Shown piece after piece: positions 8,023 to 64,000 of a stretch of 64,000 nucleotides of DNA. This stretch comes from a virus. The stretch covers positions 17,459-81,458 of IMG/VR virus record IMGVR_UViG_3300009008_000022; one strand, 5' to 3'. The notes under the pieces are model-generated. The model ran no database searches. It worked only from the letters and a program-made list of their open reading frames with translations, and was not told the origin of the DNA. The position numbers and the translations under genes are program-made. The stretch's first letter is position 1. Each line of letters starts with the position of its first letter.

Positions 8023-8027
8023 CCTCC

Positions 8028-10535: not shown

Positions 10536-10891
10536 GCTGACAACTCCTCTTTTTGGGCTTTCACCATGCGGTCAATTTCCTCGTCCAGCCCCGCGCGCAC
10601 CACGCGGCTGGCGTGATAGGTTTTGCGCAGGTAGATGCTCACCGCGAGCTGCACCGACAGCTTGTCCTCCGGCCGCCAGGGCACCATGATCACCCAATGC
10701 AGGTTGCGGGCGCGGTAGACGATCCGTGGCCGGCTGGTTTCGGACAGGCCCGTCACCAGCAGTCCGTCACCCTCAGCCAGCTCCATGCTGGTTTCGGCGC
10801 TCCAATCCTCCACAAGATCGGCCAGCCGATCCTGATTGCCGGTGACGCAGCGCAAATCAGCGGTGATCCAGTCCACCAGGCGGGGCTTCAT
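10532..10891 (-). CDS. Hypothetical protein
   Basis: AAGGAG RBS; overlaps the SNF2 stop (ATGA). Confidence 0.55.
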   Translation of the reverse strand: MKPRLVDWITADLRCVTGNQDRLADLVEDWSAETSMELAEGDGLLVTGLSETSRPRIVYRARNLHWVIMVPWRPEDKLSVQLAVSIYLRKTYHASRVVRAGLDEEIDRMVKAQKEELSA

Positions 10892-21424: not shown

Positions 21425-21973
21425 ATGCCGGAGCAGATGAGCTTTTTTGACCAGCCGCCGGCCCGTGACACGCTGCAAGAGGCGCGGGACAAGGTGCGCG
21501 ACGGGCTAGAGGACGGTGTTGAATGCCCGTGCTGTAAGCAGCTCTGCAAGCTGTACGCGCGGAACATGAACAGCGCAAGGGCCAGGGCGCTGATCTGGCT
21601 GGTAAACAAGCATGAGCTGGCCCTGTTGAGGCGATCTCCGCATTCAATCGCCCATGGTCAGACGTGTTGGACGCATATCAGGACCGAGGCGCCGAAATGG
21701 CTAATCGCCCTGGGCGGCGAGTTTGCGAAGCTGCGCTATTGGGGATTCATCACCGAACGGCCCAACGACGACAAGCGCAAGCGCACGTCCGGCTACTGGA
21801 AGCCAACGCAGGCCGGCCGGGACTTTGCGCACGGCCGCGCCATGGCAATCAAAACCTTCTACGTTTTCGACGGGGAGGTACAGCGCGCCTCGACTGAGCT
21901 AATCAGCGTGCGCGCCGCCCTGGGCGAGCAGTTTGACTACCAGGAGCTAATGAATGGCAAAGACAGCGTATAG
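21425..21973 (+). CDS. Phage hypothetical protein (CPCC, wHTH-like), N-terminal EQMSFF
   Basis: GGAGGG RBS; coupled ORF. Confidence 0.55.
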   Translation: MPEQMSFFDQPPARDTLQEARDKVRDGLEDGVECPCCKQLCKLYARNMNSARARALIWLVNKHELALLRRSPHSIAHGQTCWTHIRTEAPKWLIALGGEFAKLRYWGFITERPNDDKRKRTSGYWKPTQAGRDFAHGRAMAIKTFYVFDGEVQRASTELISVRAALGEQFDYQELMNGKDSV

Positions 21974-38067: not shown

Positions 38068-38110
38068 GGAGCTGGATCGCGCATGGGCTACCCTGTTTCG
38101 CGTAGGTGGT

Positions 38111-38366
38111 TTTGCTTAACCACCACCTTAACTAGCAGCTTAACTAGGTGCTGTCCCTGCCACCTGGACGCGAGCCGTCCGCCCCCGTCATTTTTGTCCG
38201 TCCGAAGCGGTGGAATTGTCCACCGATACGGTAAAGGTGCGAGATGATTGGGGGCGGCCTGTCGTTTTGCTTAACCTATGGCTTAACTAGCAACTTATCC
38301 AATTCGTAGCAGATGCAGATGCAGATGAAGATCTGTTTTTAAGGGGGGGTGCAGGGGGGGAAACCG
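38111..38366 (+). repeat. Non-coding iteron cluster homologous to the origin segment of the initiator gene
   Basis: Two triplets of 12-bp-period (G/C/A)CTTA(A/T)C repeats, then GTAGCAGATGCAGATGCA and GGGGGTGCAGGGGG, colinear with 16101-16196. Confidence 0.75.
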
Positions 38367-38381
38367 GGAGAAGGATCCGCC

Positions 38382-42332: not shown

Positions 42333-44725
42333 TGGCGAAGGCAGAGAAGAAGGGCGCCGCCGCGGCCGGAGTCCGGTACGTCATGGACTGCCTGCTGGTG
42401 GAGGCCAAATTCGAGGTACAAGGGGCGGTGCACCTGTCCATGATTAAGGACCGGAGCGTGAGCGTTAAAACCTCAGAGATCGTCGCGCGCCTCAAGAAGT
42501 TCGCCCAGGCCAAGCTGGAGCTGGACCCGCGGTTTCGCGCCGGTTGGGGCAGCTCGCCAGTGACCGATGAGCAGCTACACGCAATCGTCGGGCCGTTGGT
42601 TGAAATGCGGGCCGGAAAGATCGTCAAGGGCGGTGAGCGGATCTGGTGCCAGGGAGGGCCAGCTCCGCGCCCTTTCGTTAAGGGCGAGCGGCCGTCCGGC
42701 GCAGGCTGGCAGGCCGTACCAAATACCAAATTTGGCGGGTACAGGCGCCGCGGCAAGGGCGGCAAGTGGGAGTATTGGTATCCCGAAAAGCACGCCAAGT
42801 TGGGCCATGGGTTTGAAGCTGAGCATGTGGAGCTGCGCGAAAAGCGCGACCGCGTTGCGGCCGACATAGAGCGCCGCGGCCTGGGGGTGGAGTACGAAAC
42901 GAGCCCAGGCCGGTATCTGGTTGTCATGCCGGACCCGTCGCACGCGGGCAAGGTCCGCACGCAGAGCTACGATGAGCACGGATTCTCTGGGCACCGCACC
43001 TATGACGATCTGCCAGCTCTGGCCGCGGACGTTGCCAAGTGGGAGTACAACGGGATCAAGCCAGCTCAGGCCGGCACGCTAGACAAGCTCGCCCAGGGCG
43101 AGCCATGGCGCCAGGCCGCCCTTCACCAGCAAGCGTTAAGGGAGATCGAAAGCCTGGAGAGGCAGGGGCAGGACGTGAGCGAGCTACACGCGGTCCTAGC
43201 TCGCAAAGGGTCAGAGGCGCTACTGGCGCACCTGGGCAAGTCGGAGGCGCCGCGGTTGCTCGCCCTGGGCGACCGGTTGGTCAAGGCTGGCGTTGGAGCG
43301 GAGCGGCAACAGATCATGTTTGCAGCTCGCCAGCGCAAGCAGTACCCGCCAGGTTACAAGCCGGAGCACAAGGTCAAGGGAAAGACGGTCAAGGTCCACA
43401 CTAACGGCTGGCAGGCTATCCCCAAGGGGCACAAGGGAGGCTATCGGCGCCGGACCCGCGGCGGGTGGGAGTACTGGTATCCAGACCATCACGCGCGGCC
43501 TGGGCTACACGCACCGAGCGTGGAGCCGCACGGCGGCACGTTGGCCGAAGCGGTGGAGCTGCGCGAAAAGCACGGCGTGCCGATCCATGTAAGCTGTGGC
43601 GCTGGGGTGGACAGTACCGGTTTGCTGGTAGGCATGTATCAGCAGGGGATCCGGCCGGATGCGGTTGTGTTTGCGGACGTGGGGAACGAAAACCCGCGCA
43701 CTTATATGTTCCTTCCCCACCTGGACGCATGGCTGAGATCGGTTGGCTTCCCGCCCCTAACCGTGGTGCGAAACAAGCCGACCGTTAGCGCCTCAGAAAT
43801 GGTGAGAGAGGCGCGCGGAAAGACTTACGCCACGTTGGAACAGAACGTGGTGCTGCATGAAACCCTGCCGTCAATCTCACTGGCCGGTGGCCGCGGTTGC
43901 AGCCAGAAGTGGAAACACCAGCCTCAAGAAGCCTGGGCAAACCAGCGCGAGGATTGCCAGTCGGCATGGGAGCAGGGCTTCAAGGTCACGAAGCTAATCG
44001 GCTACAGCTCTGACCCGGCGGACAAGCGCCGGCCGGATATGCCGGACGATGAGAAGTATCACTATCAGTACCCGTTGCGTGAATGGGGGTGGGATCGGGA
44101 GCGGTGCAAGAAAGAGATCGCCGCGGCCGGTATGCCCGTACCAGTCAAGAGCGCGTGCTGGTTTTGCACAGCGACCAAGCCGCACGAGCTGCGCCGCATA
44201 GTGAGCGAGTACCCCGACATCGGCCGCCGGATAATCCAGATGGAGGCCGCCGCGGAGGACAACCTACGCAAGATCCGCGGCCTGTGGGGCACACCGGTGA
44301 AGGGGGCCAGGGGCGCGCTAAAGAAGCCGGGAACAATGGCAGAGTGGATCATCGGGGAGGAGTTGCTGCCGGAGTTTAAGGGCCAGGATATTGTTGACCC
44401 GTGGTGGCGCCAATCAGGCCAGGTGACGCCCGGTAACGAGCACTTCAAGGTGGCGGACGTGATGCACCTTGTAGACGCGCCACCGCCGCCGGTGAGCCCG
44501 CTTGAGGATCTAAGCGGCCTGGCTCCGGTGGACACCGACGAGCTGCGCGAGCAGAGCAAGGCGCGAAAGCGAGGTGGTGCGGTTCAGACCAGCTTGTTTA
44601 AGAGCGCGCCCAGGGCGACGATGAGGGACGGAGATCAAAAGTTCTGGGCAGCCATGGCATTGATCCAGGCGTTTGATCAATTCGACAGCATGGGCAAGGA
44701 CGGCAAGCGGCATGGATCTGAATGA
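42332..44725 (+). CDS. Modular protein B: two GW/EYWYP modules plus a PAPS-reductase-like PP-loop domain
   Basis: SCGAGVDS, FADVG.E, CSQKWK, IGY, YPLREWGW.R..C, PVKSACWFC. Start coupled by TAATG at 42332. Confidence 0.8.
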   Translation: MAKAEKKGAAAAGVRYVMDCLLVEAKFEVQGAVHLSMIKDRSVSVKTSEIVARLKKFAQAKLELDPRFRAGWGSSPVTDEQLHAIVGPLVEMRAGKIVKGGERIWCQGGPAPRPFVKGERPSGAGWQAVPNTKFGGYRRRGKGGKWEYWYPEKHAKLGHGFEAEHVELREKRDRVAADIERRGLGVEYETSPGRYLVVMPDPSHAGKVRTQSYDEHGFSGHRTYDDLPALAADVAKWEYNGIKPAQAGTLDKLAQGEPWRQAALHQQALREIESLERQGQDVSELHAVLARKGSEALLAHLGKSEAPRLLALGDRLVKAGVGAERQQIMFAARQRKQYPPGYKPEHKVKGKTVKVHTNGWQAIPKGHKGGYRRRTRGGWEYWYPDHHARPGLHAPSVEPHGGTLAEAVELREKHGVPIHVSCGAGVDSTGLLVGMYQQGIRPDAVVFADVGNENPRTYMFLPHLDAWLRSVGFPPLTVVRNKPTVSASEMVREARGKTYATLEQNVVLHETLPSISLAGGRGCSQKWKHQPQEAWANQREDCQSAWEQGFKVTKLIGYSSDPADKRRPDMPDDEKYHYQYPLREWGWDRERCKKEIAAAGMPVPVKSACWFCTATKPHELRRIVSEYPDIGRRIIQMEAAAEDNLRKIRGLWGTPVKGARGALKKPGTMAEWIIGEELLPEFKGQDIVDPWWRQSGQVTPGNEHFKVADVMHLVDAPPPPVSPLEDLSGLAPVDTDELREQSKARKRGGAVQTSLFKSAPRATMRDGDQKFWAAMALIQAFDQFDSMGKDGKRHGSE

Positions 44726-47700
44726 CCTGTTACAGCGAGGGTTGAGAAAGGCGGAACAGCTCGATCTGTTTGGGCCGGAGCAACTAACCTCAGACAGAGG
44801 GCCACGAGACACCGTGAAGCCGGCCACGCCGCGCCGAGTTGGTAAGCCAGGCCGCGGCAAGCGCCGCAAGAGCAAGCGCGTTATACCGCCGCACCAGGGC
44901 CACATGACGCCACCTGGCAAGGGTTGGCAGGCTATCCCGCGGGGCAAGAAGGGCGGTTTCAGACGCAAGGGCAGCAACGGCAAGTGGGAGTACTGGTATC
45001 CCAACAGGGGAATCACTCCCAGCCCGCACCATAAAGACATTCCCGACAGGCCCGATCCGGCGAAGGATCCGAAGGGCGCGCTGGCATGGTGGGGGATGCG
45101 CCTTTATGAAGGCACCGTCAACGACGAGGGGTTTTGGCAGGACCACCGGAGGACAACCGGAGCCAGGCCGCGGGTTTACAGCTTGAGTTGGGATTATGGC
45201 CGAATGAGCCTGGCCCTGTTTGATGCAGTCGAGGGCATACCTCAACAGCAAAGGGCCGCCATTTTGGAGCCGACGCGGGAGCGAGCGCACTTCCCCCGCG
45301 ATCAGTTCACCGACATGGCCGAAAGCTATCGCCGGTTGGAGGAATACCAAGTCGCGGTGCGATTGAATGCCGAGCGCCGGCCGGCCGCCCCCGTCGAGGA
45401 CGTTGACGCCGCGGTGGACAGCCTGCAAGGGGTGGAGCCGGAGTCCGCCCAGGGCGCCGACGTGCCGCACCTGGAAGTTGAGGAGTACGACGGCCGCGAG
45501 GGCGATCCAAACCACCTTACGCGCAAGGAAACCGGCCGCGTAACGCCGCAAAGCCTGGCTCACTTAAAGGGGGCCAGGAAAGAGCACGGCTACATGCGCT
45601 GGCACGACGGCAGCGCCATTGGAGCGAAGGATCCAGGGGAATACTTCGGCAGATATACCAGGGAAAAGTGGGAGGCGTTTGTTGCCGACATTAAAGCGCG
45701 CGGCGTTCAGGATCCGGTTTTCATCGTTAGGAACCCAGAGCCAGGCACGCGGCACGATCCGGCTGGAACGTGGGTGTATGAGGGCAATCACCGCATAGCC
45801 GCGGCATTGGAGGCGGGGGTTAAAACGATCCCGGTAGAGATCCGCTACTTCGGCCACACTGAGCGCGACGGCCAGGCTGCGCCAGGGTGGGATCGTATGC
45901 CCGAGAGTGAGCCCGCCCAGGGCGAGCCACACGAGCCGGGGCCGGATACGTTTCACGGCAAACTTACGGCGCTACGGGCCGAGGCTGAAAGGCTGGACTT
46001 GCCCACGGCCGCCAGGCTGCTTAACCCGGAAGGCTGGCCCACGGACGATGAGAAGTTGGGCAGCGTGCTAATGGACGCCACCGCGGAGCTGGGCGGGTTG
46101 CTAGTAGGGGAGGATACGCCGGACAACCGCCGCCGCCGTGAGCTGCTAATCGAGGGGATCAAGGTCTGGACCAAGGATGGCGAGTACGAGCCGATCACGT
46201 CCCTGCATACCAGCCGCGAGGATCTTCAACGGCTGGGGTTTAGGACCATTGCCAAGTTCACTGATCTGAAAAAGCTGGGCTACCGTATCGTTCAGTGGGC
46301 GCGCGTGGTGGGCGAGGTGTACGGCGACAACAAGGACATGGCCGGTTGGGAGATCGTTCACGAGTATGACCCGATGCACCCCGACGCGGGCAGCGGCGCA
46401 GGGCTGGCCGGCAAGCGTGATCACAAGACGGGTGACGGGTTGGGCTATTGGGAGGCTCCAGCGCCCGGTGATGCGCCAGGGATGAGCCCCGAGGCGGTGC
46501 GCTACACGGCGCCGGCCGGACCCGCGACAAGCAAGGTCCATGAGCTGTTGACGGGGGAAGCTACGCGCTTGACGTTGCCAGGCGTAGACATGAAGGGCAC
46601 CAGCGTGCGCAAGCGCGGTGTTAATCCGGCCGATGCAATGGACCGCGGAAGGGCAGAGCGGGACAAGGCCAGGCGGGCGCAGACCAGCCTGGGGTTTGAC
46701 TACTCCGGCGACAGCCCGCACCACCAGGCAGAGCGCGCCAGGGAGCTTAGTATGGGGGCGGCCTGGGCGATCCTTAACCCGGATTTTGAACATACCTCGA
46801 CCGACGTTAAGCGCGTCCGGCAGCAGCTCGCAGATGATGCGGTTGAGCTGGCGAAGCTACAGGCCAGCGAGCCGGATAGCGAGGCAACGCGCGAGCTGGC
46901 TGAAATGCAGAAGCTCCGGCGGGCCGCGTTGCGCACGGTGAAGCCCAAAGGCAAGCGAGCCGCGGCGCTGACAGCTCGTGGGGAGAGTAAAAAAAAAGAT
47001 CCGGCCGCCGGGATTTATGAGCGGGTAGCCCAGGCATCGGGAAGTTCCGCAGCTTGGATGGTGCAAAGCAAGGCCCGCGAGGTTGCTCATATGCAGCCTG
47101 GCGACCACTTTATGAAGCCAGGCGGGATTTACGCGACCGCGGCCAAGATCACGTCAACCCATGTGATCGATACCCTGGGCAAAAAGCACACGCTGGCGTC
47201 CCTGTTTGGGCTGAAGCTGAAGGATAAGGATCTGGTAACGCTGGCCCTGGCGGAAGGCGCCAAAGAGCCGCCGCCCAAGCGCGGACCAAACCCGGATTGG
47301 GTAGCCGGCTGGGAGCGCATGAAGCCAGGCGACAGCTTCACCTTGCCAGCCGATCCGCGAGGGCTGAGCTACCACGGGCCAGTGTTGGCCGGAGCGCGCG
47401 AGTACAAGGTTACAAGGCGGGTGGGAGATCGGACCTTTGAGGTGGAATTTCAGCACCCGGAAGGGCCAATAACCGAGGCCGAAGCCAGGGCGGCGCATGT
47501 AGACCACAAGGGGCGCCCGCGCGGGAACAGCGGCCTGGCCTACCATGGGCAGAAGTTCCGAGCTGAGATCAGCCGTTACCATGATGGATCGTGGGGCGTT
47601 GATCTCCTCGACCCTAACCCCACGTCTTACATTTCAGCTCACCCGGACGGCGGTGGAGCGGCGCCCACTGAGCAGAACAATGGAGGGCACGAGGGGATCG

Positions 47701-49601
47701 AAGTGGACCCGGTGATTCATCATCGGTCGGCGCCGATGCTGCGCGCCATGGCCGGACAGAAGGCCAAAATGCCGGAGCCGGGAAGCATCACCGTCAACCT
47801 GGCAGAGCTGGCGAAGAAAACCGGAGCAGACTACCACGACAACCTAACCCTGGCGGCCAGCGTTGCTCAGGCTTTCTTGACGGGTAGCGACAACCTGCCC
47901 GTGATCCTGCCGATGCTGATTAAGCATGTGAAAAAGGATCAGGCCGCGATTGATGAAGGCCGGGAGAAGTGGGACAGCCTGCCCGCGGCGCTCAAATACG
48001 ACTACGCCAAGATGGCAGAGTTGCACGAGCGGCGCCGATCCGTACTGGATCAGGTTGAACCAGGGTGGGACCGTATGCCGGACAGCGAGGGCGGCGAAAG
48101 CCCTGGCGACAAGATGATGCGCATGACGCGCGAGGGTCCGAAGCTCACCGCGGAGGGGCTGTCTCCCGGCGGGCCGGAGCCAGCGCCGGCCGAGGTGGAG
48201 GCGAAACGCAAGGCGCTGCTAGACCGCGCGAAGGATCTGGAGCGGCGCTCTGACAGAGAGTTTGAGCAGGCGCGCGGCATAATCCAGCACCATACCGGGC
48301 AGCCTATCCAGGCGAGCGGGCACCATTCCAGGGGCCGGCACATGCGCGAGCTGGAGCGGCACGACGAGAAAGCCGCCCGAGCAATTCGGACGCAGAAGCA
48401 GGCCGAAGCTCTACGCGCCCGCGCTGAGCGGGTGGAGGATGAGCTGCGCGGTGCGCGCAAGGCGTCCGCCGGCAAGCCGGAGGCCAGCGGCGACAGATGG
48501 ATCCGCCTGGGCGAAGGGACCACGCGCCGGCAAGCCATGCGGGCAGCTCGCAAGGGCGACTTTGGACCGCCGGTGGGCAGGCAGGTTCAAAACGCGATCT
48601 GCATTGCCCTGGACGTAAACGGCCGGTGGTGGGTTGGGGAGCGCGGCACCTTGGAGGGCGGCAGCTCCGGCGGACACCCGCTTAGGCTTATCGCCTATAC
48701 AACGCCGAAGAAGGGCGCGAAGTGGGAGCCCACGGTGGGCAAGTATTCCGCCCGATCAATGGACGAGGCAGAGGAAACCGCCCGCAGTTATTTTGCCAGC
48801 CTGGCAGACGGCACCCGAGAGGTGACGATACCGGACAGCGACAAGATCAATCAGCCGCCGATAGACCTGGAGCACGACGGGTGGACCGCGGAGTCATGGC
48901 AGGCGTTCCGCCAGGGCGAGCTGGACGGCCAAGCCGAAGCGAAGCGGAAAGCAGAGGCAGAGCGCCAGGCCAGGGTTGAGGCGCAGGAGCGGCGAGAGGC
49001 CGAGGCAAGAGCCAAGCGCGAAGCGGAGGTTAAAAAGCGACAGCAGGAACAGGAGCGCAAGCGCCAGAAGCGGGTTGAGTCCGGCAAGCCAGCGCGGGCA
49101 TTGTGGGAGGGATTGCAGCCTGGCGATAAGTTCCAGTTTCCCCCCATGGGCGCCTATGGGGACTATGACCCGCACGTTTACGTTGTGAAAGCGGTGGGCC
49201 GAAGTGAGATAAGCGGGGAGCCGGAGATCGTTATCCGGCGGCACCGCGCCCGTAAAACCATGACGGCCACGATGGATGAGTTTGGGCATGTTTCCGCCAT
49301 TCCCGAGGGAAAGCAGAGCTGGCTGAGCCGAAGCCTGGGCAGGCCGGAGCCGTTTGAAAAGCCGAAGCCCGAGCCGGCCGGCACCATGGGGCCAGGCGCG
49401 CACCCTTACACCGCGGAGCTGCAAGCCAAACTGAAAGAGCTGGAGGCAATCTATCAAAAGCACAAGATCAAGGGGCCGAAGGCCGACCGCGTTATGGCGG
49501 CGTTTCGCGAGGTGGTGGTGGAGGTGTCTAACCTTCCGGCCGACGCGGACGTGGGCACGGCCAACAGCTTTTCCACACGAGCCCCGCGGTCCAGGGCGTA
49601 A
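44712..49601 (+). CDS. Giant modular protein C: GW/EYWYP module, ParB/Srx domain, DUF3560-like domain (continues in frame into D)
   Basis: DIKARGVQDPV...EGNHRIAAALEAG.KTIPV (45650-45860); GQPIQASGHHSRGRHMR (48200-48450). Confidence 0.75.
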   Translation: MDLNDLLQRGLRKAEQLDLFGPEQLTSDRGPRDTVKPATPRRVGKPGRGKRRKSKRVIPPHQGHMTPPGKGWQAIPRGKKGGFRRKGSNGKWEYWYPNRGITPSPHHKDIPDRPDPAKDPKGALAWWGMRLYEGTVNDEGFWQDHRRTTGARPRVYSLSWDYGRMSLALFDAVEGIPQQQRAAILEPTRERAHFPRDQFTDMAESYRRLEEYQVAVRLNAERRPAAPVEDVDAAVDSLQGVEPESAQGADVPHLEVEEYDGREGDPNHLTRKETGRVTPQSLAHLKGARKEHGYMRWHDGSAIGAKDPGEYFGRYTREKWEAFVADIKARGVQDPVFIVRNPEPGTRHDPAGTWVYEGNHRIAAALEAGVKTIPVEIRYFGHTERDGQAAPGWDRMPESEPAQGEPHEPGPDTFHGKLTALRAEAERLDLPTAARLLNPEGWPTDDEKLGSVLMDATAELGGLLVGEDTPDNRRRRELLIEGIKVWTKDGEYEPITSLHTSREDLQRLGFRTIAKFTDLKKLGYRIVQWARVVGEVYGDNKDMAGWEIVHEYDPMHPDAGSGAGLAGKRDHKTGDGLGYWEAPAPGDAPGMSPEAVRYTAPAGPATSKVHELLTGEATRLTLPGVDMKGTSVRKRGVNPADAMDRGRAERDKARRAQTSLGFDYSGDSPHHQAERARELSMGAAWAILNPDFEHTSTDVKRVRQQLADDAVELAKLQASEPDSEATRELAEMQKLRRAALRTVKPKGKRAAALTARGESKKKDPAAGIYERVAQASGSSAAWMVQSKAREVAHMQPGDHFMKPGGIYATAAKITSTHVIDTLGKKHTLASLFGLKLKDKDLVTLALAEGAKEPPPKRGPNPDWVAGWERMKPGDSFTLPADPRGLSYHGPVLAGAREYKVTRRVGDRTFEVEFQHPEGPITEAEARAAHVDHKGRPRGNSGLAYHGQKFRAEISRYHDGSWGVDLLDPNPTSYISAHPDGGGAAPTEQNNGGHEGIEVDPVIHHRSAPMLRAMAGQKAKMPEPGSITVNLAELAKKTGADYHDNLTLAASVAQAFLTGSDNLPVILPMLIKHVKKDQAAIDEGREKWDSLPAALKYDYAKMAELHERRRSVLDQVEPGWDRMPDSEGGESPGDKMMRMTREGPKLTAEGLSPGGPEPAPAEVEAKRKALLDRAKDLERRSDREFEQARGIIQHHTGQPIQASGHHSRGRHMRELERHDEKAARAIRTQKQAEALRARAERVEDELRGARKASAGKPEASGDRWIRLGEGTTRRQAMRAARKGDFGPPVGRQVQNAICIALDVNGRWWVGERGTLEGGSSGGHPLRLIAYTTPKKGAKWEPTVGKYSARSMDEAEETARSYFASLADGTREVTIPDSDKINQPPIDLEHDGWTAESWQAFRQGELDGQAEAKRKAEAERQARVEAQERREAEARAKREAEVKKRQQEQERKRQKRVESGKPARALWEGLQPGDKFQFPPMGAYGDYDPHVYVVKAVGRSEISGEPEIVIRRHRARKTMTATMDEFGHVSAIPEGKQSWLSRSLGRPEPFEKPKPEPAGTMGPGAHPYTAELQAKLKELEAIYQKHKIKGPKADRVMAAFREVVVEVSNLPADADVGTANSFSTRAPRSRA

Positions 49602-49628
49602 ACGGCCGCATGGAAGATCAACGAATAC

Positions 49629-55200: not shown

Positions 55201-57104
55201 AGGCGCGCAAGGCGCCAGAGAATCAGCTTGGGTTTGACTTTAGCAGCCATGAGCCGAAGCCGGCAGCCAAGGCAGCCAGAGCGGCCAAGCCGACCGGCGG
55301 CGAGTCGCACGCGCAGCTCTTAGGCATGGGCTGGCGCCCGATTGAGCACCCGCGGGGAGGCAAGCACGGCTACTTTAAGATCGTGGGCGGCAAGAGGCGG
55401 TATTACTACCCTGACTTTGTGCCACACGGGCACCACGGGCACCGGCCGCCGCCAACCGCCACAGACGGAGAGGAGTTGTTTAGGACCAAAGCCGCGCGCT
55501 GGTATGAGGATAAAAACGGCGTGCTGTTGGTAGTAGATCGCGATCCTTTCTATGATCCACCGCGCGGTTACGGCGTTTATCGGGCGAAGCCGATACCCCA
55601 CAAGGACACGCACCAGCTCAGACGACACCGGGGATTCTCTTTTCACCCCACGGCCGGAGAGGCGCAACACGCCCTGTCAATAAAAGCCGAGCGCGAGGGG
55701 TGGCGACACGTTCCCATGGACGAAATAAAAGAGGCGGCGGAAGCCAGGGCAAGGCCAGCGCCGAAGCCGAAGCCGAAGCCGGCGCCAGAGCCAGAGCCCC
55801 GGCAGGCCAGCCTTGCTTTTTCTCCAGGCGAAACGGTGGAGGTTGCACAGGCGACCTTTACGCCCAAGCGGGTGGGCAACACCATAGCCGCGGTGCGCGG
55901 TGAGGTGTTTCACGCCCTGGGCACGTCCGGCAATCAGTGGGAGGCGTTGATCCCGGTGGACTACGCCGATGATGGCAAGGGCGGTGCGTTCCCGGTTTAC
56001 AAGATGCCGAGCGGGTATCAGCTCGTTGACACGCACCTGAGATCGGCACACGCGGCGGGGGTGGACGGCACGAGCTGTCAGATATGCGGGACGCGGATCA
56101 AGAATGTTTGCCATATCGTGCACCACGACAAACGGATCCGGTTGGAGGTGGGCAGCGAGTGTGTTCAGAAGTTTTCCAACGCGGAAATGCCACAGCAGGC
56201 CCAGGCCGCGATCAAACTGCTCAAGATCAAGATCAAGCCGGAGGAGTTGCCCCACATTAACGAGCTGGCAGAGCGCGGCGTACCGATGGACGTGGCCGTT
56301 GTTCGCGCCAGGGCGCGCAGCGCGGCCGGCCGAGCTTGGGACAAGAAGCACAGCCCGCCCACCGCGGAGCAGGAACAGTGGTGGAGCACCATCGGCCAGG
56401 GCCAGCTAGAGGAAGCGCGCCGCGGCAAGCGTGGGGGCGGCTATGTGGCGGATCACCTGTATGAGCGGCTAATGCACCCGGCGCACGACGCACCAGGCAG
56501 CGGGCACAACGGCCTGGGCTGGCACAATTCCAGTTGGTCACGCACCAACCGCGGCGGCCGGTGGGAGTTGCACGAGGGGCTAACGCTGGCGGAAAACTAC
56601 GATGAGGCCCGCGCCGCGGCCATGGAAGCCAGAGAGGAGAAGGCCGCGATCAAGGCTTATCCCGAGCTGATCAAGTGGGCCACGATCCTGAAAGAAACCC
56701 GCGGTCACAAGCTCACCGATGCGCAGCGCGCGGAGATCCGCCAGGCGCACGACGCCGCTACAAAGTCCGGCGAAACCAGAGTGCCAGCCCAGACGGACCA
56801 TGATCGGCTAGTGGGCCTAAACGCCGTGGCAAAGCGCCGCGCCCAAGTGGCCTGGGATGATGAGCACGAATACCCGCGCCGTACCAATGAGGCCAAGGCC
56901 GCGCGAAACGCCTTGGAGGACTACTTTGAAGCGCAGGATAAGCTCCGGTCCTACACCGACTATGGCTATAGCCCGCCGGACGCCTTGAAGTATCGAGCCA
57001 GCGGCGAGTCAATCACGCGGTTTAGATACCTCGACGCGCTAGGGCCGAATGAGCGAGAATACTACCGGCAACGCTTGAAAGAGGCTGGTTTGGAGCTGAA
57101 ATGA
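52206..57104 (+). CDS. Giant modular protein E: two PAPS-reductase-like PP-loop domains, small W-rich modules, Zn-finger
   Basis: SAGGGLDS...KSACVYCP (52254-53030); SSGGKDS..HADLG..CTSALK..GVRRQE..RLSCLWCP (53740-54580); CQICG...VGSECV. Confidence 0.82.
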   Translation: MGQQQQLGFDFGGEKKRVKVLSAGGGLDSWAMWLRAKARGELPDLVIFADVGDPEGKHPAEWPSTYQHLREVFRPDVEAQGVEFKWLTAEDIPVRSHRKSCKSCGEQHPEGFDSLYAYLRHMRNLPTGSSKMCTSAGKVERIGQWVEDRYPDVDEIEMWIGYGAEETGRLKKNRYAQGQGRRVNRYPLIEEKLCREKELVIAMASGHPVPRKSACVYCPMSSRGDFLTLLKEQPKMFQMTLDMEENSKLTEARRKRLRYSGTGEHMPNLLEWVTNTGRYEFTPTGRRTKPYISSRDKEDCPCCGNKKASKATGSDYAHAGTGREIPVDVTELDAPGHVIAIHVDKKTGEPYVDHKLNIPYMEEAHGPITPETPIINYGTKPIVGLETTFTPHILYVGPRGGRWADPKHRIHWDPKVHGTVTSQTRRIKKAEVMLKGGKFPIGTIRTWRDGKRYRKVREGQWQEVAPARQAQQLDLFAAMDSRVTEKDREPICSRPPPVSVPPEIKDALDRGGYLIINSSGGKDSHALTYALATCPELAAYKDRMIVYHADLGRAEWPGAGAKAEEIAKQFGLPFVKVKRDASINRETGKREVWEGDMLTHMEERAAWPSMTTRICTSALKTGPIWKALRRRFSKEGVPIVSALGVRRQEGEGDKVNAGSRWFAEEWHQGGDFGTKSVKEPVRLEVREVSHELAPWPSPSKKDLRAVKRGTVNRSVKREAYEWNPLVDWDLSHVWGATRESGVDRHYAYDLGSSRLSCLWCPLSSQADKVAAAKAHPEILRQWLDAENKMRATHEQRRGFWAEHIDRGQVEGGMEVTEPKDGGVPLYAFDAARMSQAEIVDMKRNGGKYSKKRGTVEIPKRYLKPFLEYGTKGNQGESLLALMARLGVTLEKAASDPAFVRELVKRAREHGRQMDRYQLAVERVIEVKDRVARANGATRERLLRLYQREMDQLAGIGAQLKGSHPFPSSGEGIAREQAARKSLLDRGQAVAARMEERMEKARKAPENQLGFDFSSHEPKPAAKAARAAKPTGGESHAQLLGMGWRPIEHPRGGKHGYFKIVGGKRRYYYPDFVPHGHHGHRPPPTATDGEELFRTKAARWYEDKNGVLLVVDRDPFYDPPRGYGVYRAKPIPHKDTHQLRRHRGFSFHPTAGEAQHALSIKAEREGWRHVPMDEIKEAAEARARPAPKPKPKPAPEPEPRQASLAFSPGETVEVAQATFTPKRVGNTIAAVRGEVFHALGTSGNQWEALIPVDYADDGKGGAFPVYKMPSGYQLVDTHLRSAHAAGVDGTSCQICGTRIKNVCHIVHHDKRIRLEVGSECVQKFSNAEMPQQAQAAIKLLKIKIKPEELPHINELAERGVPMDVAVVRARARSAAGRAWDKKHSPPTAEQEQWWSTIGQGQLEEARRGKRGGGYVADHLYERLMHPAHDAPGSGHNGLGWHNSSWSRTNRGGRWELHEGLTLAENYDEARAAAMEAREEKAAIKAYPELIKWATILKETRGHKLTDAQRAEIRQAHDAATKSGETRVPAQTDHDRLVGLNAVAKRRAQVAWDDEHEYPRRTNEAKAARNALEDYFEAQDKLRSYTDYGYSPPDALKYRASGESITRFRYLDALGPNEREYYRQRLKEAGLELK

Positions 57105-60100
57105 GCAAGATAGACGATCTGGTAGCACGCGGGGAGGAACGGCTGAGCAAGATGATGCAGCTTGGCTTGTTTGACAACCTGGGCGGATCGTCGGGAGCTG
57201 GGGAGCATTTGCCCGACTCCCATACCAGCAAGCCGAAGCGCGAAGCGCGCCACCAGGGCGAAACCAAGCCGGACAAGCCGAAGCGCCCGCCAGGGCCGGA
57301 CCTGAGCACGATTCACGAGGTTGACGCCCACCGCGACAGCGCGCAGCAACACCGCGCGCACGCGCACCGCGCCAAGCTATCCGGTGACGCGGAGCTGTCA
57401 GACCTTCACCGCGCCGCGGCATTTCGGGCGGATCTCGTGGCAACGTACCTGGACGCTGGCAAGCCGGCCGCGGAGGTTGAAACCGCCAAGCAATCCGTTG
57501 CGGAGGCGGTAGACACCATCGGCCGGTTAGAGGCGAGCCGTAAAGCCGAGGCCGAGCATGAGCGCCAGCGCCAGCACCGCGAGAAGCAGATCAGCGGCGC
57601 CAGGGGGCACGCTTCTGCTCTGGTCAGCGCCGGCAAGGCCACGCCGGAGGGGCTGCGCGTGCTGGCCCGTGGAATGGAGGATAGGGGCTGGAAACACGCC
57701 GCGAAGGAATACCACCGCGCCGCAGACCAGTTGCAAGGCGCGCAGGCTACGGTGAGCCAGGCGCAGCTCGCAACAATGCTGGACGAGGTTACTGAGCGCC
57801 GGCCTGGCGGGCGGGTGGTTAAGCCAGGGACAACGCCGGAGCAAGCGGCGAAAGCTGCCGATGCCCTGGAGTCAATGCTGGACGCTAACCCGGTAGAGAA
57901 GCGCACAAGGGCGGACGGCAGCAAAAACTGGCAAGAGACAAACCAGCACGCCGTACTGCGAGTTATCGTTGAAAAGCTCAGGGAGCACGCAAGCCCAGGG
58001 CCAGAGGTCGCAGAGGCAGCCAAGCCGGCCGCGGCGCCAGCTCCGGCCAGCAAGCACCACGCTGGCGAGCCGCCCCCCGGTGGAGGTTGGCGCCGGACCA
58101 CGAAAGGGTGGGCCAGAGGCCGCGGCCAGCGTTACGAATGGAAGCCGGTGGAGTGGTGGAAAGAGGGAGAGGGGAAAGCCAAGCCAGCGGCCAAAAAGAA
58201 GCCCAAGCCACAGAGGGAGAGGCCCGATGTTCGACCCGAAGAAAATGATCAGCCCCGAGCCGCCCGAGCTGCCGGAGCACCTGAAGCTAAACCCGAGCCC
58301 GAGTCTGAGGTATCAGGTAGACGGCCTGGACGATCTGCCGGAGGACGAGCAACAGCAGATCCTAGCCATGATGCGGACGCCGGAGAAGCCGAGCACACCG
58401 CGCCCGACCTAGCCGCCCTGGAGGCCGGCGCCCAGGCGCAGCAAGGCAAGCGCCAGCCGACCGGCAAGAAAAGCGGCCCGTCTATCCAGCTTGAGGCGGA
58501 CCTGTTGCCGCCGATCCCAGATGAGGCGCGGATCAGGCCGGACATTGCACCGTTCCCTGTGCCGCAGGGGCCGATCAAGGATCTGTACCCGCACCAGCGA
58601 GAGGCCGCGGAGCGGATCCTGGCGAGCTGGCGCGAGCGGGACGGCTGCCTGATTGCCGATGAGGCCGGCCTGGGCAAGACGCTATCCGGCGTTGCCGCCA
58701 TGATGCAGCGCGGAGGGCGCCGGAACCTGATCGTGGTGCCTACCAAGGGCAAACGCGGCCTAATGCGCCAGTGGCAGGATGAAGGGCTGGCCCTGTACGG
58801 AGTCCGCGGCAAAGGGAAGGATGAGCTGGACCCGGAGATCGATGGAACATGGCTCATTGGCTACAATGATCTGTATGAATCCGTGGCCGCCGAGGATGAG
58901 TTTGACGACTGGCACGTCGTTGACACCGACGCGGTTGAGGAGATCCTGAATCGCTACACGCACCGCCGTGCGCAATGGTGGAGCGCCGGCCTGGCCGACA
59001 GGGCAGCCGAAGCGATCAAGGATGAGATCGAGTGGCAGGAATGGGGCACCCGCAAGAACAAAGAGGAGATCGCAGAGCTGCGCCGGAATTGGGCCGATGC
59101 GGTTGAGATCGCGAAGCGGATCGAAAAGCGTTACCAGGGGGATTACCCGGACGGTCTGCCACAGCGAGTCATGTTCCAGGGAATGTCAGAGCTGGCGACA
59201 GAGGTGCAAGAGGACCGTCGCGCAGCTCAGCGGGAGAAGCTGAAAGGAAAGCGGACGCGGCGGTTGCGCAAGGCTCTGTTTGACGGCCAATTTGACACGA
59301 TCTTGTTTGATGAGTGTCACGGCATGGTCAACCAGAAAACCACCACCGCCAAGGCGGGCAAGCTGCTACAGGACCAGGCCGGCAAGGTGCTTTACATGAG
59401 CGCCACGCCTTACACCTACATTCGGGACATGAGCTACCTCAAGCGCCTGGGGTTGTTTGAGCCGGAATTTAACGAGGACAAGAACAGGCTGGAAACCTCA
59501 GACGAGGCGTTTATCCGGTGGGTTGTTTCTCTGGGCGGCGAGCCGTCCGAGGGGTGGGTTGCAGACCCGAAAACGCCCAAGGCCAAGGTCGCGGTGGCGG
59601 CCAAGATGCACACCGAAGGGTCCAGAATCAAGCGCGTGACCAGCCTTGAAGGCACGCGATCCATGTTCCACATGATGCCGCAAGAATCTCTGTCGGAGGA
59701 CGCGCAGAAAACGCTGGAGATCGGCGGCAAGGTGTTTGGGATCATGGAGCGGTATTGGAGGAGCCTGGCCGGCGCGCACTACAAGAACTGGAGCCGGCAG
59801 TACTTGGAGACACAGAAGGTAGACGCCGCGGTTGCCATTGCGCGGCGCGAGCTGGAGAAAAACCCCAACGCTCAGATCGCGTTCTTCACCTCGTTCAAGG
59901 AATCGGACCACGGCCATATCCGCAACGCGCCGGACGGGATCCGGCGCCTGGCGGAACGGGCCGCAGAGGATCCCGAAAAGTACTTTTGGTTCGACCCCGC
60001 CCAGGCCGCGGAGGACATAGCCGAGATAGAGGCGCTGATACCGCAGCTCCCGCCCGTGCTGCGCGGGCCGGACGGTGAAAACGAGGCGATAGTTGACCGC

Positions 60101-63100
60101 CTGACCCGAGAGTTTGGAGGGCCGAAGAAGGTCGCTCAGATCCACGGCCGGACCAGCAAAAAGCCGGAGGTTGAACAGGCCCGTTACCAGAGCGGAGAGG
60201 CCAAGGTCGCGGTCTGCACCATGAGCAAGGGCGGCACCGGGATCAGCCTGCACGACAAGGTTGGCAATGCGCCGCGGATCCAGATCAACCTGTCCCTGCC
60301 CTGGACGGGCAATGAGTTTGATCAGGTTAAGGGCCGGTCGCACCGCCTGGGCAGCAAGAGCAACACAGACATTCACTGGATGGTGGGCGACCACCCGACC
60401 GAGCAGCACAACGCCGCGATTTGTGGCAAGCGCCTACAGGCCGCGGGCAGCCTCACGATTGGCAACCAGGATCTTGCCCAGGACAGCGCGCACCTGGCGG
60501 ACTTTGACGAGGGGGACGGCGCCGGCGCGGATCTGACCGACGATCCCGCCGAAGCCTATCGGATCTCGCACGGCACAGACCGAATGATCCGAGAGGGAGA
60601 GGGCACCGACGAAGGCAAGGAGCAGCGGTGGCACTTTCGGAAAGTGGCCGAGCGACACCGGGCAGGCGGCGACGTTGTTGGGGAGGTGACAGAGCACTTG
60701 GAAGCGCAGCGCAAGCGCAAGACAGAGCTGGAAGCGCGCCGAGCATCCGAGCAGCTAAAGCAGGCCGCCGGCATTAACACGCATTGGGATCCGACCGCGC
60801 ATGTTTGGGTATTGGATCGTAACTCGCTGAATTGGAGCCAGAGCGAAGCCCTGGATCGGTTTATCGCGCGCAAGACAACCAACGCGCGGAGCTTGTTTTA
60901 CCTGCATGAAACCCACATTGACGCCCACAGTATGCCCGCCCTGGCGAAGATCATGGAGGCGGACAAGCATCCGGTGGATATGCGGGACGTGGTGCAAAAA
61001 GCGGTGAAGGCAGAGCGCGCGATCATTGACACGATGCGCGGAGCCACCCGCAGGCGTGACATACGAATGGAGCCGGTAATTAACGGCGACGGGGATCTGG
61101 AGTTTCACCTGTCCGGCAACAGCTTTGCGTATCAGCACGGCATGGAGGCGGCCGGCGCCAGCCTGGTAGACATGGGCGACGGCGACGTGCGGCGCTGGAC
61201 GTGGGTTGTACCGGAGCAGGCCGCGGCCAACGTGATGGAAAATTTCGAGCGGGTTGACCAGGAGCGCGACTACCCGCACCGCTTGAACACCTACGGCCGC
61301 GCCAGGATCGATGAATACAGGGAGATGCACGGCATGGATAAGTCAGAACGGCTAGAGGCTCTGTTTGCGAGGGGCAACGCCTTGCGCAAGGGCGAGAGTC
61401 CTCCGAGTGGATTCACGCAGATCACGGGCAGCGCCAAGGGCGGCTGGCACAAGAAAGAGGGGAACCATTACGTCTACTGGTATCCCGGCCAGGGCGTTGT
61501 CAGTTCGCGCCACAGCAGCGACGTGCACGCGGATCACTCCAAATTGCCGGAGGGGTTTAACAAGATGCCCCTGGAGGACCGCGCGGAAATGACCGCGCAT
61601 TGGGATCACGTCCGGCAAAACCTGGCAGAGTACAAGCCGCGCACCTACCACGGCGATACGCAGGCGGCCGTGGTGGAACATCTGGAGGACATGCGCCGAG
61701 CTGGCAACCTCGTGCCGTCGAATGCTGCCCTGGCAAAGAAGATGATGCTCACGCAGCTCAAGCACGGCCGCGCCGCGGGGATCCCTGAGCCCGCCCTGGC
61801 GAAGCTCATGGAAGAAAACGTCCGCAAGCTCTGTATGCAAGAGGTGGAGAGCGTTGGGCGCACCCTGGGAGATCACGGCGTGCGCCACCTGGCGAAAAAC
61901 GCCGAGCAGACCGACCGGATCTTTGACGCGGTAGTCGCGGGAGGCGGCCAGATCACGCCCATGGAGCGGTTCATGGCCCATCAGGTGCACATCGATCACG
62001 ACATGGGCTACACCATCGGCGCGATTGCCAAGGGCGGGTTTGCCGTTGCGGACAAGTACCACCCGCAGGCCAGCGCCGTGCTGGTGAGGCAGCAGGCGGA
62101 CAAGTACAAGGCGCTGTTTGGCGACAAGTACCAGGCGTTTCACCAGGCCGTGCTAACCCACAGCCGCAGCGGCGTGGACTGGAAAAACGATCCGTTTACC
62201 AGCGCGATCCGGCTGGCCGATAACACTCACCTGTTTGCGGACAAACTGCCCGAGGTGTTGATGGACTCCCGCCTGGGCTCCGAGGTGATGGTAAAGATCA
62301 AGCTGGCCGCCGAGCTGATCCCGCCCACCGTGGAGGTGCGAAAAACCGACCCGAAAACCGGAAAGGTCAAGGTGAAAATGAAGCGCACCGAGCAAGATAA
62401 GGCGCGCTTTAATGCCCTGATTGGGAGCATTCGAGGCCAGATGCACGCCGCGGTGGACGGCAATTCGGAGCTGCCAAAGTCGATCAAGGCTGCGCTGAAA
62501 AAGGCCATCGGTGAGATCGGGGAGCTTACGCCCAAGTTTCTGGTGTCGCGCCTGGCGGGACGTGATCCACAGTTCCGGTTTGAGGGCGGCGACATGCACG
62601 TCACGATCCAGCAGAGCGCAGCTCGTGAAACCATCGGGCAAGTGTTTGGCGACGATCAGCCCGACAAGCAGTTCCGCAAACTGCTGGAGGACTACGACAC
62701 GAGCCCCGAATCGGCGTTTGACGCCAAGCCGCCGCCGCCGCATGTCCAGGTGGGCAAGGACGGCAACGGGCTGTTTTTCCAGTGGCAGAGCGGGGAGTCC
62801 GAAAACCAATCCCACCCCGTTGAACAGCGCCACCGGGAAGTGATGGAGCGCGTTAAGGGGGAGTTTGAAAGGGTCAAGGCCATGCCGGCGGGCAAGGCAA
62901 AGCAGGCCGCCCTGGACAAGTTCTTTGCGACGGACGTTGCCAAGGCGCTGCGCCAAATCTGGACGCTGATCAAGGCGGACAAGGCGCGCGAGGATGAGCA
63001 AGAGCAGGAGCCGCCCAAGGGCAAGGGCGAGGCCCCACCGGACAAGCCGGAGGGCGAGGAGCCGCCGCCAGAGGGCGAGGATGAACAGGATCCGCTGGCG

Positions 63101-63727
63101 TCAGAGGACGGCGAGCCTGACCAGGGCGAAGGGGAGGACGGCGGCGAAGGGGAGGCGGAAGGTACGCTTCACACCACGCCGGCCGATGCAGCGAAGCTCA
63201 TAGAGCGCCAGTTTCCACAGGTGAGCGTGCACGAAACAGCGGACGGTGAAGGGTTGCACCTGTACGGCCAGGGCGCCGATCAAGCGGTCCATATGATGCT
63301 GAAAGAGGGGTGGGCGGTGAGCCAGGGCAGCGACGGGTCCATGACCATCCGGCCGCCTGGCGCCACCATTCCAGAGCACGAGCGGTGGGATAACACGCAC
63401 CACCCGCACGCCCAGGACCAGGGGCCGGAGATGGAGGATGAACAGGAGCAAGGGCCGCCGAATGGACAGCCGCGGCCAGCGCCAGGTAGTATGGGCAAAA
63501 GCTACGCTACGGCGGATTGGCACCAGTCCAGAGCCGATTATCTGTCCAGGTTAGGCGGCGAGATGATGTTTAAGAGCGAATATCACGGGTTTGTGAGCCA
63601 GCTCGATCATCTTATTGGCGCCCACCGCAACGCCGCGGAACAGCTCGCCAACGGAAATAGCCGAGAGGCGCGGTACTCCAGTTTCCATGCGCTAACCCTG
63701 GACCGCAAAACCATTCGGAGCAAATGA
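57101..63727 (+). CDS. Giant modular protein F: Strawberry-notch-like SF2 helicase plus HD phosphohydrolase domain plus GW modules
   Basis: ADEAGLGKT, FDECH, MSATP, GGTGISLHD, QVKGRSHRLG (58580-60470); DHGVRH...HDMGY...H...H...LADN (61860-62240). Confidence 0.85.
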   Translation: MSKIDDLVARGEERLSKMMQLGLFDNLGGSSGAGEHLPDSHTSKPKREARHQGETKPDKPKRPPGPDLSTIHEVDAHRDSAQQHRAHAHRAKLSGDAELSDLHRAAAFRADLVATYLDAGKPAAEVETAKQSVAEAVDTIGRLEASRKAEAEHERQRQHREKQISGARGHASALVSAGKATPEGLRVLARGMEDRGWKHAAKEYHRAADQLQGAQATVSQAQLATMLDEVTERRPGGRVVKPGTTPEQAAKAADALESMLDANPVEKRTRADGSKNWQETNQHAVLRVIVEKLREHASPGPEVAEAAKPAAAPAPASKHHAGEPPPGGGWRRTTKGWARGRGQRYEWKPVEWWKEGEGKAKPAAKKKPKPQRERPDVRPEENDQPRAARAAGAPEAKPEPESEVSGRRPGRSAGGRATADPSHDADAGEAEHTAPDLAALEAGAQAQQGKRQPTGKKSGPSIQLEADLLPPIPDEARIRPDIAPFPVPQGPIKDLYPHQREAAERILASWRERDGCLIADEAGLGKTLSGVAAMMQRGGRRNLIVVPTKGKRGLMRQWQDEGLALYGVRGKGKDELDPEIDGTWLIGYNDLYESVAAEDEFDDWHVVDTDAVEEILNRYTHRRAQWWSAGLADRAAEAIKDEIEWQEWGTRKNKEEIAELRRNWADAVEIAKRIEKRYQGDYPDGLPQRVMFQGMSELATEVQEDRRAAQREKLKGKRTRRLRKALFDGQFDTILFDECHGMVNQKTTTAKAGKLLQDQAGKVLYMSATPYTYIRDMSYLKRLGLFEPEFNEDKNRLETSDEAFIRWVVSLGGEPSEGWVADPKTPKAKVAVAAKMHTEGSRIKRVTSLEGTRSMFHMMPQESLSEDAQKTLEIGGKVFGIMERYWRSLAGAHYKNWSRQYLETQKVDAAVAIARRELEKNPNAQIAFFTSFKESDHGHIRNAPDGIRRLAERAAEDPEKYFWFDPAQAAEDIAEIEALIPQLPPVLRGPDGENEAIVDRLTREFGGPKKVAQIHGRTSKKPEVEQARYQSGEAKVAVCTMSKGGTGISLHDKVGNAPRIQINLSLPWTGNEFDQVKGRSHRLGSKSNTDIHWMVGDHPTEQHNAAICGKRLQAAGSLTIGNQDLAQDSAHLADFDEGDGAGADLTDDPAEAYRISHGTDRMIREGEGTDEGKEQRWHFRKVAERHRAGGDVVGEVTEHLEAQRKRKTELEARRASEQLKQAAGINTHWDPTAHVWVLDRNSLNWSQSEALDRFIARKTTNARSLFYLHETHIDAHSMPALAKIMEADKHPVDMRDVVQKAVKAERAIIDTMRGATRRRDIRMEPVINGDGDLEFHLSGNSFAYQHGMEAAGASLVDMGDGDVRRWTWVVPEQAAANVMENFERVDQERDYPHRLNTYGRARIDEYREMHGMDKSERLEALFARGNALRKGESPPSGFTQITGSAKGGWHKKEGNHYVYWYPGQGVVSSRHSSDVHADHSKLPEGFNKMPLEDRAEMTAHWDHVRQNLAEYKPRTYHGDTQAAVVEHLEDMRRAGNLVPSNAALAKKMMLTQLKHGRAAGIPEPALAKLMEENVRKLCMQEVESVGRTLGDHGVRHLAKNAEQTDRIFDAVVAGGGQITPMERFMAHQVHIDHDMGYTIGAIAKGGFAVADKYHPQASAVLVRQQADKYKALFGDKYQAFHQAVLTHSRSGVDWKNDPFTSAIRLADNTHLFADKLPEVLMDSRLGSEVMVKIKLAAELIPPTVEVRKTDPKTGKVKVKMKRTEQDKARFNALIGSIRGQMHAAVDGNSELPKSIKAALKKAIGEIGELTPKFLVSRLAGRDPQFRFEGGDMHVTIQQSAARETIGQVFGDDQPDKQFRKLLEDYDTSPESAFDAKPPPPHVQVGKDGNGLFFQWQSGESENQSHPVEQRHREVMERVKGEFERVKAMPAGKAKQAALDKFFATDVAKALRQIWTLIKADKAREDEQEQEPPKGKGEAPPDKPEGEEPPPEGEDEQDPLASEDGEPDQGEGEDGGEGEAEGTLHTTPADAAKLIERQFPQVSVHETADGEGLHLYGQGADQAVHMMLKEGWAVSQGSDGSMTIRPPGATIPEHERWDNTHHPHAQDQGPEMEDEQEQGPPNGQPRPAPGSMGKSYATADWHQSRADYLSRLGGEMMFKSEYHGFVSQLDHLIGAHRNAAEQLANGNSREARYSSFHALTLDRKTIRSK

Positions 63728-64000
63728 TGAGCCACGAGCGACGGCGCGAGGAGCTGCTAGAGAAGGCGCGGCAAAACCGATCTGACAAGCAGCTCAGCCT
63801 GTTTGGGGTGGCCGCGGTAAACGAGGGGGAGACAGGCGACCTGTTTAGCCAGGGCGCCGGCCGCGGCCTGAGCGCGCCGAAGCCCAAAGCCAAGCCCAAG
63901 CCCAAGCCCAAAGCCGAGCCCAAGCCCAAAGCCGGAAAAATGACCGTCACCCTGGCGGCAGCTCCAAACCACGACTTTGGCGCCGGATCTCCAGAGGCCA
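63724..64000 (+). CDS. Next modular protein G (3'-partial)
   Basis: Coupled ATGATG start; LLEKA, KQLSLF, PKPKAK linker; open to the window end. Confidence 0.65.
   Translation, partial: MMSHERRREELLEKARQNRSDKQLSLFGVAAVNEGETGDLFSQGAGRGLSAPKPKAKPKPKPKAEPKPKAGKMTVTLAAAPNHDFGAGSPEA

Follow-up and report, generated by a model that had tools for sequence, protein, structure and literature searches.

A run of giant genes in an uncultured phage carries about a dozen short peptides resembling the docking motif of the bacterial beta sliding clamp, and the same phage encodes a divergent clamp of its own. The genes lie in the last 64 kb of the 81,458-bp IMG/VR virus record IMGVR_UViG_3300009008_000022 (63% GC); this whole stretch of 64,000 nucleotides is the window analyzed here, and all coordinates refer to it unless stated otherwise. 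To judge from their sequence, the peptides probably bind a clamp of some kind, and we favor, with somewhat less assurance, the reading that they serve mainly as clamp-docking tags that recruit DNA-modification and helicase modules to the beta clamp. The clamp bound may be the host's, the phage's, or both, and the carriers may either ride it or titrate it. The carriers are encoded by a run of long open reading frames (ORFs), as follows:

35627-37393, large terminase gene (terL; PHROG 38), after which the + strand run of giant ORFs comes
38349-42332, + strand, giant A, with ddrB-ParB and TMEM65-like domains
42122-44725, + strand, giant B, 867 amino acids (aa), with a PAPS-reductase-like domain
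44673-49601, + strand, giant C, likely start at ATG 44712, 1642 aa, with a ParB-like (ParB_N-like) domain and DUF3560
49629-52205, + strand, giant D, 858 aa, with an N6-type DNA methyltransferase module
52206-57104, + strand, giant E, 1632 aa, with two PP-loop (PAPS-reductase-like) domains, the second at aa 515-761 (Pfam PAPS_reduct)
57101-63727, + strand, giant F, 2208 aa, a Strawberry-notch (Sno)/SNF2-type helicase
from 63724, + strand, last ORF, which runs off the contig end

A first-pass annotation of this DNA had listed 11 peptides in these proteins and compared them with the bacterial clamp-binding consensus QL[SD]LF. All 11 are in frame and correctly placed within the large + strand ORFs. 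Together with two peptides absent from that list (QSSLAL and QFGLPF), the sites are:

44585-44599, + strand, QTSLF, residue 822 of the 867 of giant B, after a basic SKARKRGGAV and beyond the PAPS-reductase-like domain
44757-44771, + strand, QLDLF, giant C, 16 aa past the likely ATG 44712, exact QL[SD]LF
46680-46697, + strand, QTSLGF, giant C aa 670, in an internal linker and preceded by RDKARRA
51714-51728, + strand, QASLF, giant D aa 696, downstream of the DNA methyltransferase module
52047-52064, + strand, QSSLAL, giant D aa 807, a hexapeptide of QxxLxL type
52146-52160, + strand, QGSLF, giant D, starting 19 aa before the C-terminus
52221-52238, + strand, QLGFDF, giant E aa 6-11, in a coil tail ~5 aa before beta-1 (aa 17-22) of the first PP-loop domain
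53619-53633, + strand, QLDLF, giant E aa 472, exact consensus, ~40 aa ahead of the second PP-loop domain
QFGLPF, giant E aa 569, inside the second PP-loop domain
55224-55241, + strand, QLGFDF, giant E aa 1007, after MEKARKAPEN in a disorder-scoring region
55803-55820, + strand, QASLAF, giant E aa 1200, with a PKPKPKP linker immediately before it
57158-57172, + strand, QLGLF, giant F aa 20
63790-63804, + strand, QLSLF, last ORF aa 23, exact consensus, followed by a PK-rich linker

The peptides are far more frequent than the composition of the giants predicts. Matches were counted with the pattern Q..LF or Q..[LF].F, which leaves positions 2 and 3 free, against 2000 shuffles of whole proteins and of 40-aa windows. 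The giants (8,733 aa) hold 12 matches, namely the 11 listed earlier plus QFGLPF, where 1.2 are expected from whole-protein shuffles and 1.35 from 40-aa windows, an over-representation of ~10-fold. None of the 2000 shuffles reaches 12, which sets the count far above what amino-acid composition predicts; an origin in composition was an objection that the first-pass annotation had raised against itself. The strict form QL[SD]LF is present three times in the giants versus ~0.005 expected. No enrichment is seen outside the giants, where 59 further called proteins (14,870 aa) hold 3 matches for 2.5 expected. The enrichment is also directional and specific for the leading glutamine: the reversed pattern has no occurrence in the giants, and variants with N, E, H, R, or K as first residue number 0–3 each, despite a twofold higher frequency of E and R than of Q.

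Clamp ligands have Q at position 1, an aliphatic residue at position 2 (often L), a small or acidic one at position 3, L, M, or F at position 4, and F or L at position 5 or 6, and the likeness to this consensus holds at each position of the peptide. Three sites are exact QL[SD]LF and one is QLGLF; Q[TAGS]SLF and Q..[LF].F describe the rest. All 12 matches have S, D, or G as third residue (background 0.199; ~4e-9 if the matches are independent). This is the known bias of clamp ligands, and the pattern, which left the position unconstrained, did not impose it. A DNA repeat scan found no direct repeat covering any motif, whereas a GW..YWYP tag (described below) and the PK linkers were readily detected by the same scan. 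This indicates that the motifs are maintained as peptides and did not arise by copying of a cassette.

Most motifs lie near termini or in K/P/E-rich linkers, segments that are probably flexible. Giants C, E, and F and the last ORF have a motif 6–23 residues from the start, preceded in three of the four (not E) by a short charged stretch, and three motifs fall within the last 52 residues of giants B and D; in all, seven lie no more than ~30 residues (up to 52) from a terminus. Basic or PK-rich sequence borders the copies at C670, E1007, and E1200, which rank in the highest quartile on a rough disorder scale; E472 and D696 are ambiguous, and QFGLPF lies within a domain. An AlphaFold2 model built from a family alignment of the E PP-loop domain is confident overall (predicted local distance difference test, pLDDT, 89), with residues 1–10 as coil (pLDDT ~51) and the first strand starting at residue 17. 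The earlier claim that many motifs sit at termini or beside K-[SA] sites is sustained for termini. Its second half is not: seven K-[SAG] dipeptides occur within eight residues of a motif versus ~4.4 expected, which is not significant and leaves the suggested link to cleavage sites unsupported.

The same type of peptide recurs on relatives that are not giant proteins. The first 470 residues of giant E have >120 homologues, mostly stand-alone, typically ~300 aa, and 32%–65% identical. Among cellular sequences, the closest relatives of the PP-loop domain come from metagenome-assembled genomes of Polyangiales, a “delta proteobacterium,” and Methylocystis. We could anchor 116 stand-alone homologues on the PP-loop, and 56 of these have an N-terminal tail of at least eight residues. 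QLxLxL/F or QLxLF is found in the tail of 16–20 of the 116, where tail shuffles give 0.7–1.5; examples are MSQLSLDL, MTQLSLTL, MTQLALDL, ..AGQLGLF, ..AQLGLAF, and ..DQLPLDL. Motif density in these proteins is 16 per 1,611 aa in the tails versus 6 per 36,903 aa elsewhere. Three other PP-loop homologues carry the motif at the extreme C-terminus:

P0027, ending in ..AGQLSLFE
a Polyangiales metagenome-assembled genome, ending in ..PRQRSLFQIVGAS (also written ..RQRSLFQIVGAS)
L011, ending in ..GVQLALAL

With its consensus kept while the peptide shifts between termini, the element behaves like a short linear motif.

Two further observations concern this enzyme family. P0003 (543 aa), which is 65% identical to the first PP-loop domain of E, has an N-terminal QTALTL and a second hexapeptide, QLALEL, just past the PP-loop domain, after which another domain follows. 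More distant viral PAPS-reductase-like proteins of ~270 aa (loci L014-L057) end in ..Q-x-x-[LM]-(x)-F-x(2-4)-ECEGMCGV, with DQLDMF, GQLEMF, DQIVMDF, RQPNLF, and GQPDLF as examples, placed ~10 residues before the C-terminal ECEGMCGV. This fixed position means that the peptide there is possibly structural, an element adjoining the C-terminal Cys motif, although it may instead be a clamp-type peptide that is conserved.

Three small proteins of the phage also have motif-like ends, and the small early gene motifs that the first-pass annotation had described as QQLSF, EQMSFF, and QGALF are real and all terminal:

7297-8121, - strand, 274-aa protein with the motif-like C-terminus ..DQGALFADDSST (also written ..KRHRDQGALFADDSST)
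13146-13532, - strand, 128-aa protein with the C-terminus ..AGAQQLSFPNV, a weaker motif-like peptide
21425-21973, + strand, small Cys-rich protein with the N-terminus MPEQMSFFDQ, in which QMSFF is clamp-motif-like

A homologue of the 21425-21973 protein at 44% identity (L067) starts with MPLKHPALQQLSLLPY and has QLSLL in the same tail, and a third member of the family has no motif. The 7297-8121 product has no family match and no relatives in IMG/VR. Recurrence of the peptide with drifting flanks and position is hence seen in two families, that of the giant E PP-loop domain and that of gene 21425.

The clamp gene of the phage lies upstream of the giant array:

26893-27978 (ORF 26869-27978), + strand, DnaN-like beta sliding clamp, 361 aa from ATG 26893, with EATDGH, FPAVQRV, and the C-terminus VIMPMRM

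The earlier statement that this phage encodes its own DnaN is borne out by fold and by protein family. The product matches PHROG 947 (“DNA polymerase processivity factor”) over its full length (E 1e-24), and its AlphaFold2 model (pLDDT 94.5; predicted template modeling score, pTM, 0.90) has DnaN of Mycobacterium, Pseudomonas, Bacillus, and E. coli as top Foldseek matches in the PDB (E ~1e-22; TM 0.75–0.82). On the strength of this model, the protein has the three-domain beta-clamp fold and is a real beta-clamp homologue. Sequence searches alone do not recover it as DnaN: PF00712 is absent from the record, and the protein has no Pfam match and no phmmer match to PDB DnaN chains, so that the clamp family is, by these searches, very divergent in sequence.

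We aligned the phage clamp with E. coli DnaN (from NC_000913.3) using MAFFT and compared the motif-binding pocket, which we take to comprise T172-L177, P242, R246, V247, and V360-L366 of the E. coli protein. Fifteen of 24 pocket or adjacent residues are identical (R152, L155, T172, D173, G174, H175, F241, P242, R246, V247, V360, M362, P363, M364, and R365), four others are conservatively changed, and the pocket motifs TDGH, FP..RV, and VxMPMR are kept. To this extent the phage clamp retains the pocket; the substitutions given below qualify the point. A gene for Pol III alpha or Pol A was not found in the record, which IMG/VR labels linear and whose completeness is estimated by CheckV at 61%. 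Provided that the record is sufficiently complete, a host polymerase must be the partner of the phage clamp, and such a partnership would explain the conserved pocket.

Taken together, these results suggest the following scheme. The QxxLF and QxxLxF peptides would be short linear motifs of the beta-clamp-binding type, borne on flexible tails and linkers, each adjoining a DNA-acting module (ParB-like domains, three PAPS-reductase-like PP-loop domains, an N6-type methyltransferase, and a Sno/SNF2 helicase), with similar terminal peptides on the three small proteins. They would dock these modules into the hydrophobic pocket of the ring-shaped beta clamp that replication leaves on DNA, using the clamp of the host, that of the phage, or both. 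The enzymes would thereby be concentrated on newly replicated DNA, presumably for replication-coupled modification or protection of that DNA.

Several observations weigh against this scheme. Seven of the 11 listed motifs are off-consensus at position 2 or are hexapeptide variants, giant A is without any motif, and most stand-alone PP-loop homologues lack the tag. Recurrence could be tested for two motifs alone, homologues of the other modules not being detected: neither megablast nor tblastn matched the giants to anything in the GenBank phage collection, a scan of IMG/VR with giant F found no close relatives, and a homologue search with the N-terminal module of giant C returned nothing usable. 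Erythrobacter phage R6L gp40, a methyltransferase homologue, has no terminal motif, and neither has P0002 (1530 aa), the single distant giant relative of E that was found, any such motif. In the pocket of the phage clamp, R176A, L177G, N320E, and Y323L are changes from the E. coli protein, and S346P and Y153P also differ. Finally, clamp and motif do not always occur together in related viruses. No clamp gene lies in the 12–20-kb loci that surround viral PP-loop homologues, and whole-record searches found the clamp in two of five records:

G004 (the record of L010; 184,943 bp, direct terminal repeats, complete), clamp at 181147-182217, same divergent family
G003, clamp at 16242-17321, same divergent family

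Both are high-GC viral relatives with a PP-loop homologue, and their clamps match that of the phage at E 6e-70 and 7e-40, respectively. Their proteomes are not enriched for the motif (6 observed versus 4.9 expected in G004; 1 versus 2.5 in G003). The tags and the clamp are therefore not obligatorily linked, and phages that have this clamp family do not share the motif as a general feature; the same counts serve as a negative control for the enrichment statistic.

The alternative that survives best is that the peptides are a linear motif for some other partner, either a signal that targets the giants to capsid, portal, or scaffold for loading into the head or a recognition element for a maturation protease. 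The giants do stand directly after the large terminase gene (35627-37393), a late-gene position, and contain domains typical of head-packaged polyvalent proteins (ddrB-ParB; Iyer et al. 2017), and in four ORFs a motif near the start, after a short charged helix, resembles an N-terminal targeting peptide. We nonetheless regard this alternative as unlikely. The same peptide is found at either terminus of stand-alone PP-loop enzymes of ~290–380 aa, and on small proteins encoded within the replication region of this phage or next to it, where a head signal would be unexpected; it has the consensus of clamp ligands, S, D, or G as third residue included; and a protease element would sit poorly with K-[SAG] sites that are not enriched nearby.

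A less probable alternative still is that the clamp is indeed bound but mainly for host takeover, the many copies sequestering the host beta clamp and blocking replication or repair in the host, with the phage itself relying on its divergent clamp. At least 12 motifs across six adjacent proteins would suit such titration, as would the killing of E. coli by overexpressed phage Mu MuC through its clamp-binding motifs (PMC12867686), and the phage clamp, being unlike E. coli beta at 176, 177, 320, and 323, could differ in the partners it accepts. A single motif on the stand-alone enzymes of the PP-loop family, however, fits enzyme recruitment better. With no polymerase gene found in the possibly incomplete record, moreover, the phage clamp probably still accepts host Pol III motifs, so that its complete separation from the host system is unlikely.

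That the peptides lack any present function, as leftovers from fused modules or from a duplicated linker cassette, is very improbable: an [ED]KAR[KRQ] stretch does precede several copies, and there are identical pairs (QLDLF twice, with identical codons in both copies, and QLGFDF twice), but no DNA repeat family covers the motifs as it does the GW..YWYP tag and PK linkers, the flanks are otherwise unrelated, the enrichment, directionality, and position-3 bias are far above composition, and in homologues the peptide stays while the flanks, and even the terminus, change. Recruitment of enzyme modules to a clamp thus remains the reading we prefer.

Other features of the giants and of the record deserve mention. 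A tag of ~28 aa, GW..IP.GK.GG.RR...G.WEYWYP, is repeated across giants B, C, D, E, and F and corresponds at the DNA level to repeat families D2 and D16:

42734-42784, 43433-43483, and 44952-45002, copies of the GW..YWYP tag
43403-43440 and 44919-44956, also copies of the tag
giants D and F, further peptide copies

The tag is present as well in the distant giant P0002 from another metagenome (..WEPIPHGKRGGVRKKKAGGGYDYKYP), and is hence a conserved element of such giant proteins. Giant C contains an internal duplication (45873-45911 and 48051-48089; 82% DNA identity) that encodes PGWDRMP(E/D)SE at ~aa 405 and 1131. Just upstream of the first giant ORF are two copies of a 37-nt AT-richer element, at 38106-38142 and 38261-38297, with the form GT.GTTTTGCTTAACC...CTTAACTAGCA.CTTA. 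We dropped the idea that the motifs reflect rare codons or another DNA signal: Phe is encoded by TTT in 13 of 14 motif codons, but TTT usage is 66% giant-wide (p = 0.02).

Outside the array, the phage encodes a second, small DNA methyltransferase (20673-21422; PHROG 799) and a 686-aa SNF2-type helicase (10888-12948, - strand; PHROG 62), and so duplicates functions that it also holds as giant modules. The last ORF (63724-64000) continues in frame at record base 3 (genome bases 1-323) to give a 199-aa product. No terminal repeat was found. Although labeled linear and 61% complete, the record may represent a closed circular or a permuted genome; the in-frame join could also be coincidental.

The giants combine unrelated conflict or DNA-acting domains, and across the array these are ddrB-ParB, TMEM65-like, ParB_N-like, DUF3560, N6 methyltransferase, three PAPS-reductase-like domains, and the Sno/SNF2 helicase. 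On domain content, the giants match what Iyer et al. 2017 (PMC5512222) termed “polyvalent proteins,” known from phages and conjugative elements as giant concatenations of ddrB-ParB, methyltransferase, SNF2-type helicase, and other conflict domains, encoded among late genes beside packaging genes. The domain kinds and the position after terL agree with that description. Neither the three PP-loop domains nor clamp-type peptides where modules meet form part of it, and the words clamp, DnaN, and PAPS are absent from that paper (PMC5512222). Our literature search likewise found no paper tying PAPS reductases or polyvalent proteins to the sliding clamp. PAPS-reductase-like enzymes of phages occur widely, as do giant polyvalent proteins; if the scheme proposed here is true, a clamp tag would bring both to DNA that is being, or has just been, replicated. 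It may also explain why a phage whose record has no polymerase gene found should keep a clamp of its own.

Cellular clients of the beta clamp that carry QL[SD]LF or QLxLxL (a Dalrymple-type consensus) include Pol II, Pol IV, UmuC, Hda, and MutS/MutL. The peptides described here share with them the penta- and hexapeptide consensus and its setting, a terminus or linker, probably flexible, on a DNA-acting protein. The carriers differ, being giant multidomain phage proteins and PAPS-reductase-like PP-loop enzymes, as does the number of motifs, up to four per protein and ~12 in one gene array, and binding here is a prediction. What would be new is therefore the set of carriers of a known docking motif and their unusual multivalency. 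The closest phage parallel is MuC of phage Mu, a transcription activator of 16.5 kDa whose N- and C-terminal near-consensus peptides QHDLF and QPDLF bind it to the E. coli clamp and are shared across its family; overexpression of MuC is lethal, Mor also binds the host clamp, and clamp titration has been raised as a possible effect (PMC12867686). In both cases phage proteins have terminal near-consensus motifs that deviate at position 2. MuC uses the host clamp, however, whereas here the carriers are DNA-modification and helicase proteins and the phage encodes a clamp. Our results would add to the Mu evidence that phages use the beta clamp beyond replication.

Use of the clamp on replicated DNA as a platform for non-polymerase factors, attached through short terminal peptides, is also familiar from the T4 gp45 clamp with its tailed partners gp43, gp33, and gp55, and from eukaryotic DNMT1-PCNA; in this way replication is tied to a further DNA transaction. 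There the resemblance is one of principle, since gp45 and PCNA are trimeric and the beta-type clamp is dimeric, and the motif consensus differs. It is tempting, though at present doubtful, to carry the analogy further and suppose that this phage couples chemical DNA modification to replication, with its own divergent clamp, placed on phage DNA during replication, as a dedicated platform to which giant multi-enzyme proteins that bear PP-loop/ParB, methyltransferase, and helicase modules attach via a dozen docking peptides. Such an arrangement would be a prokaryotic-virus counterpart of DNMT1-PCNA and, if true, would make the PAPS-reductase-like enzymes of mobile elements clamp clients in general.

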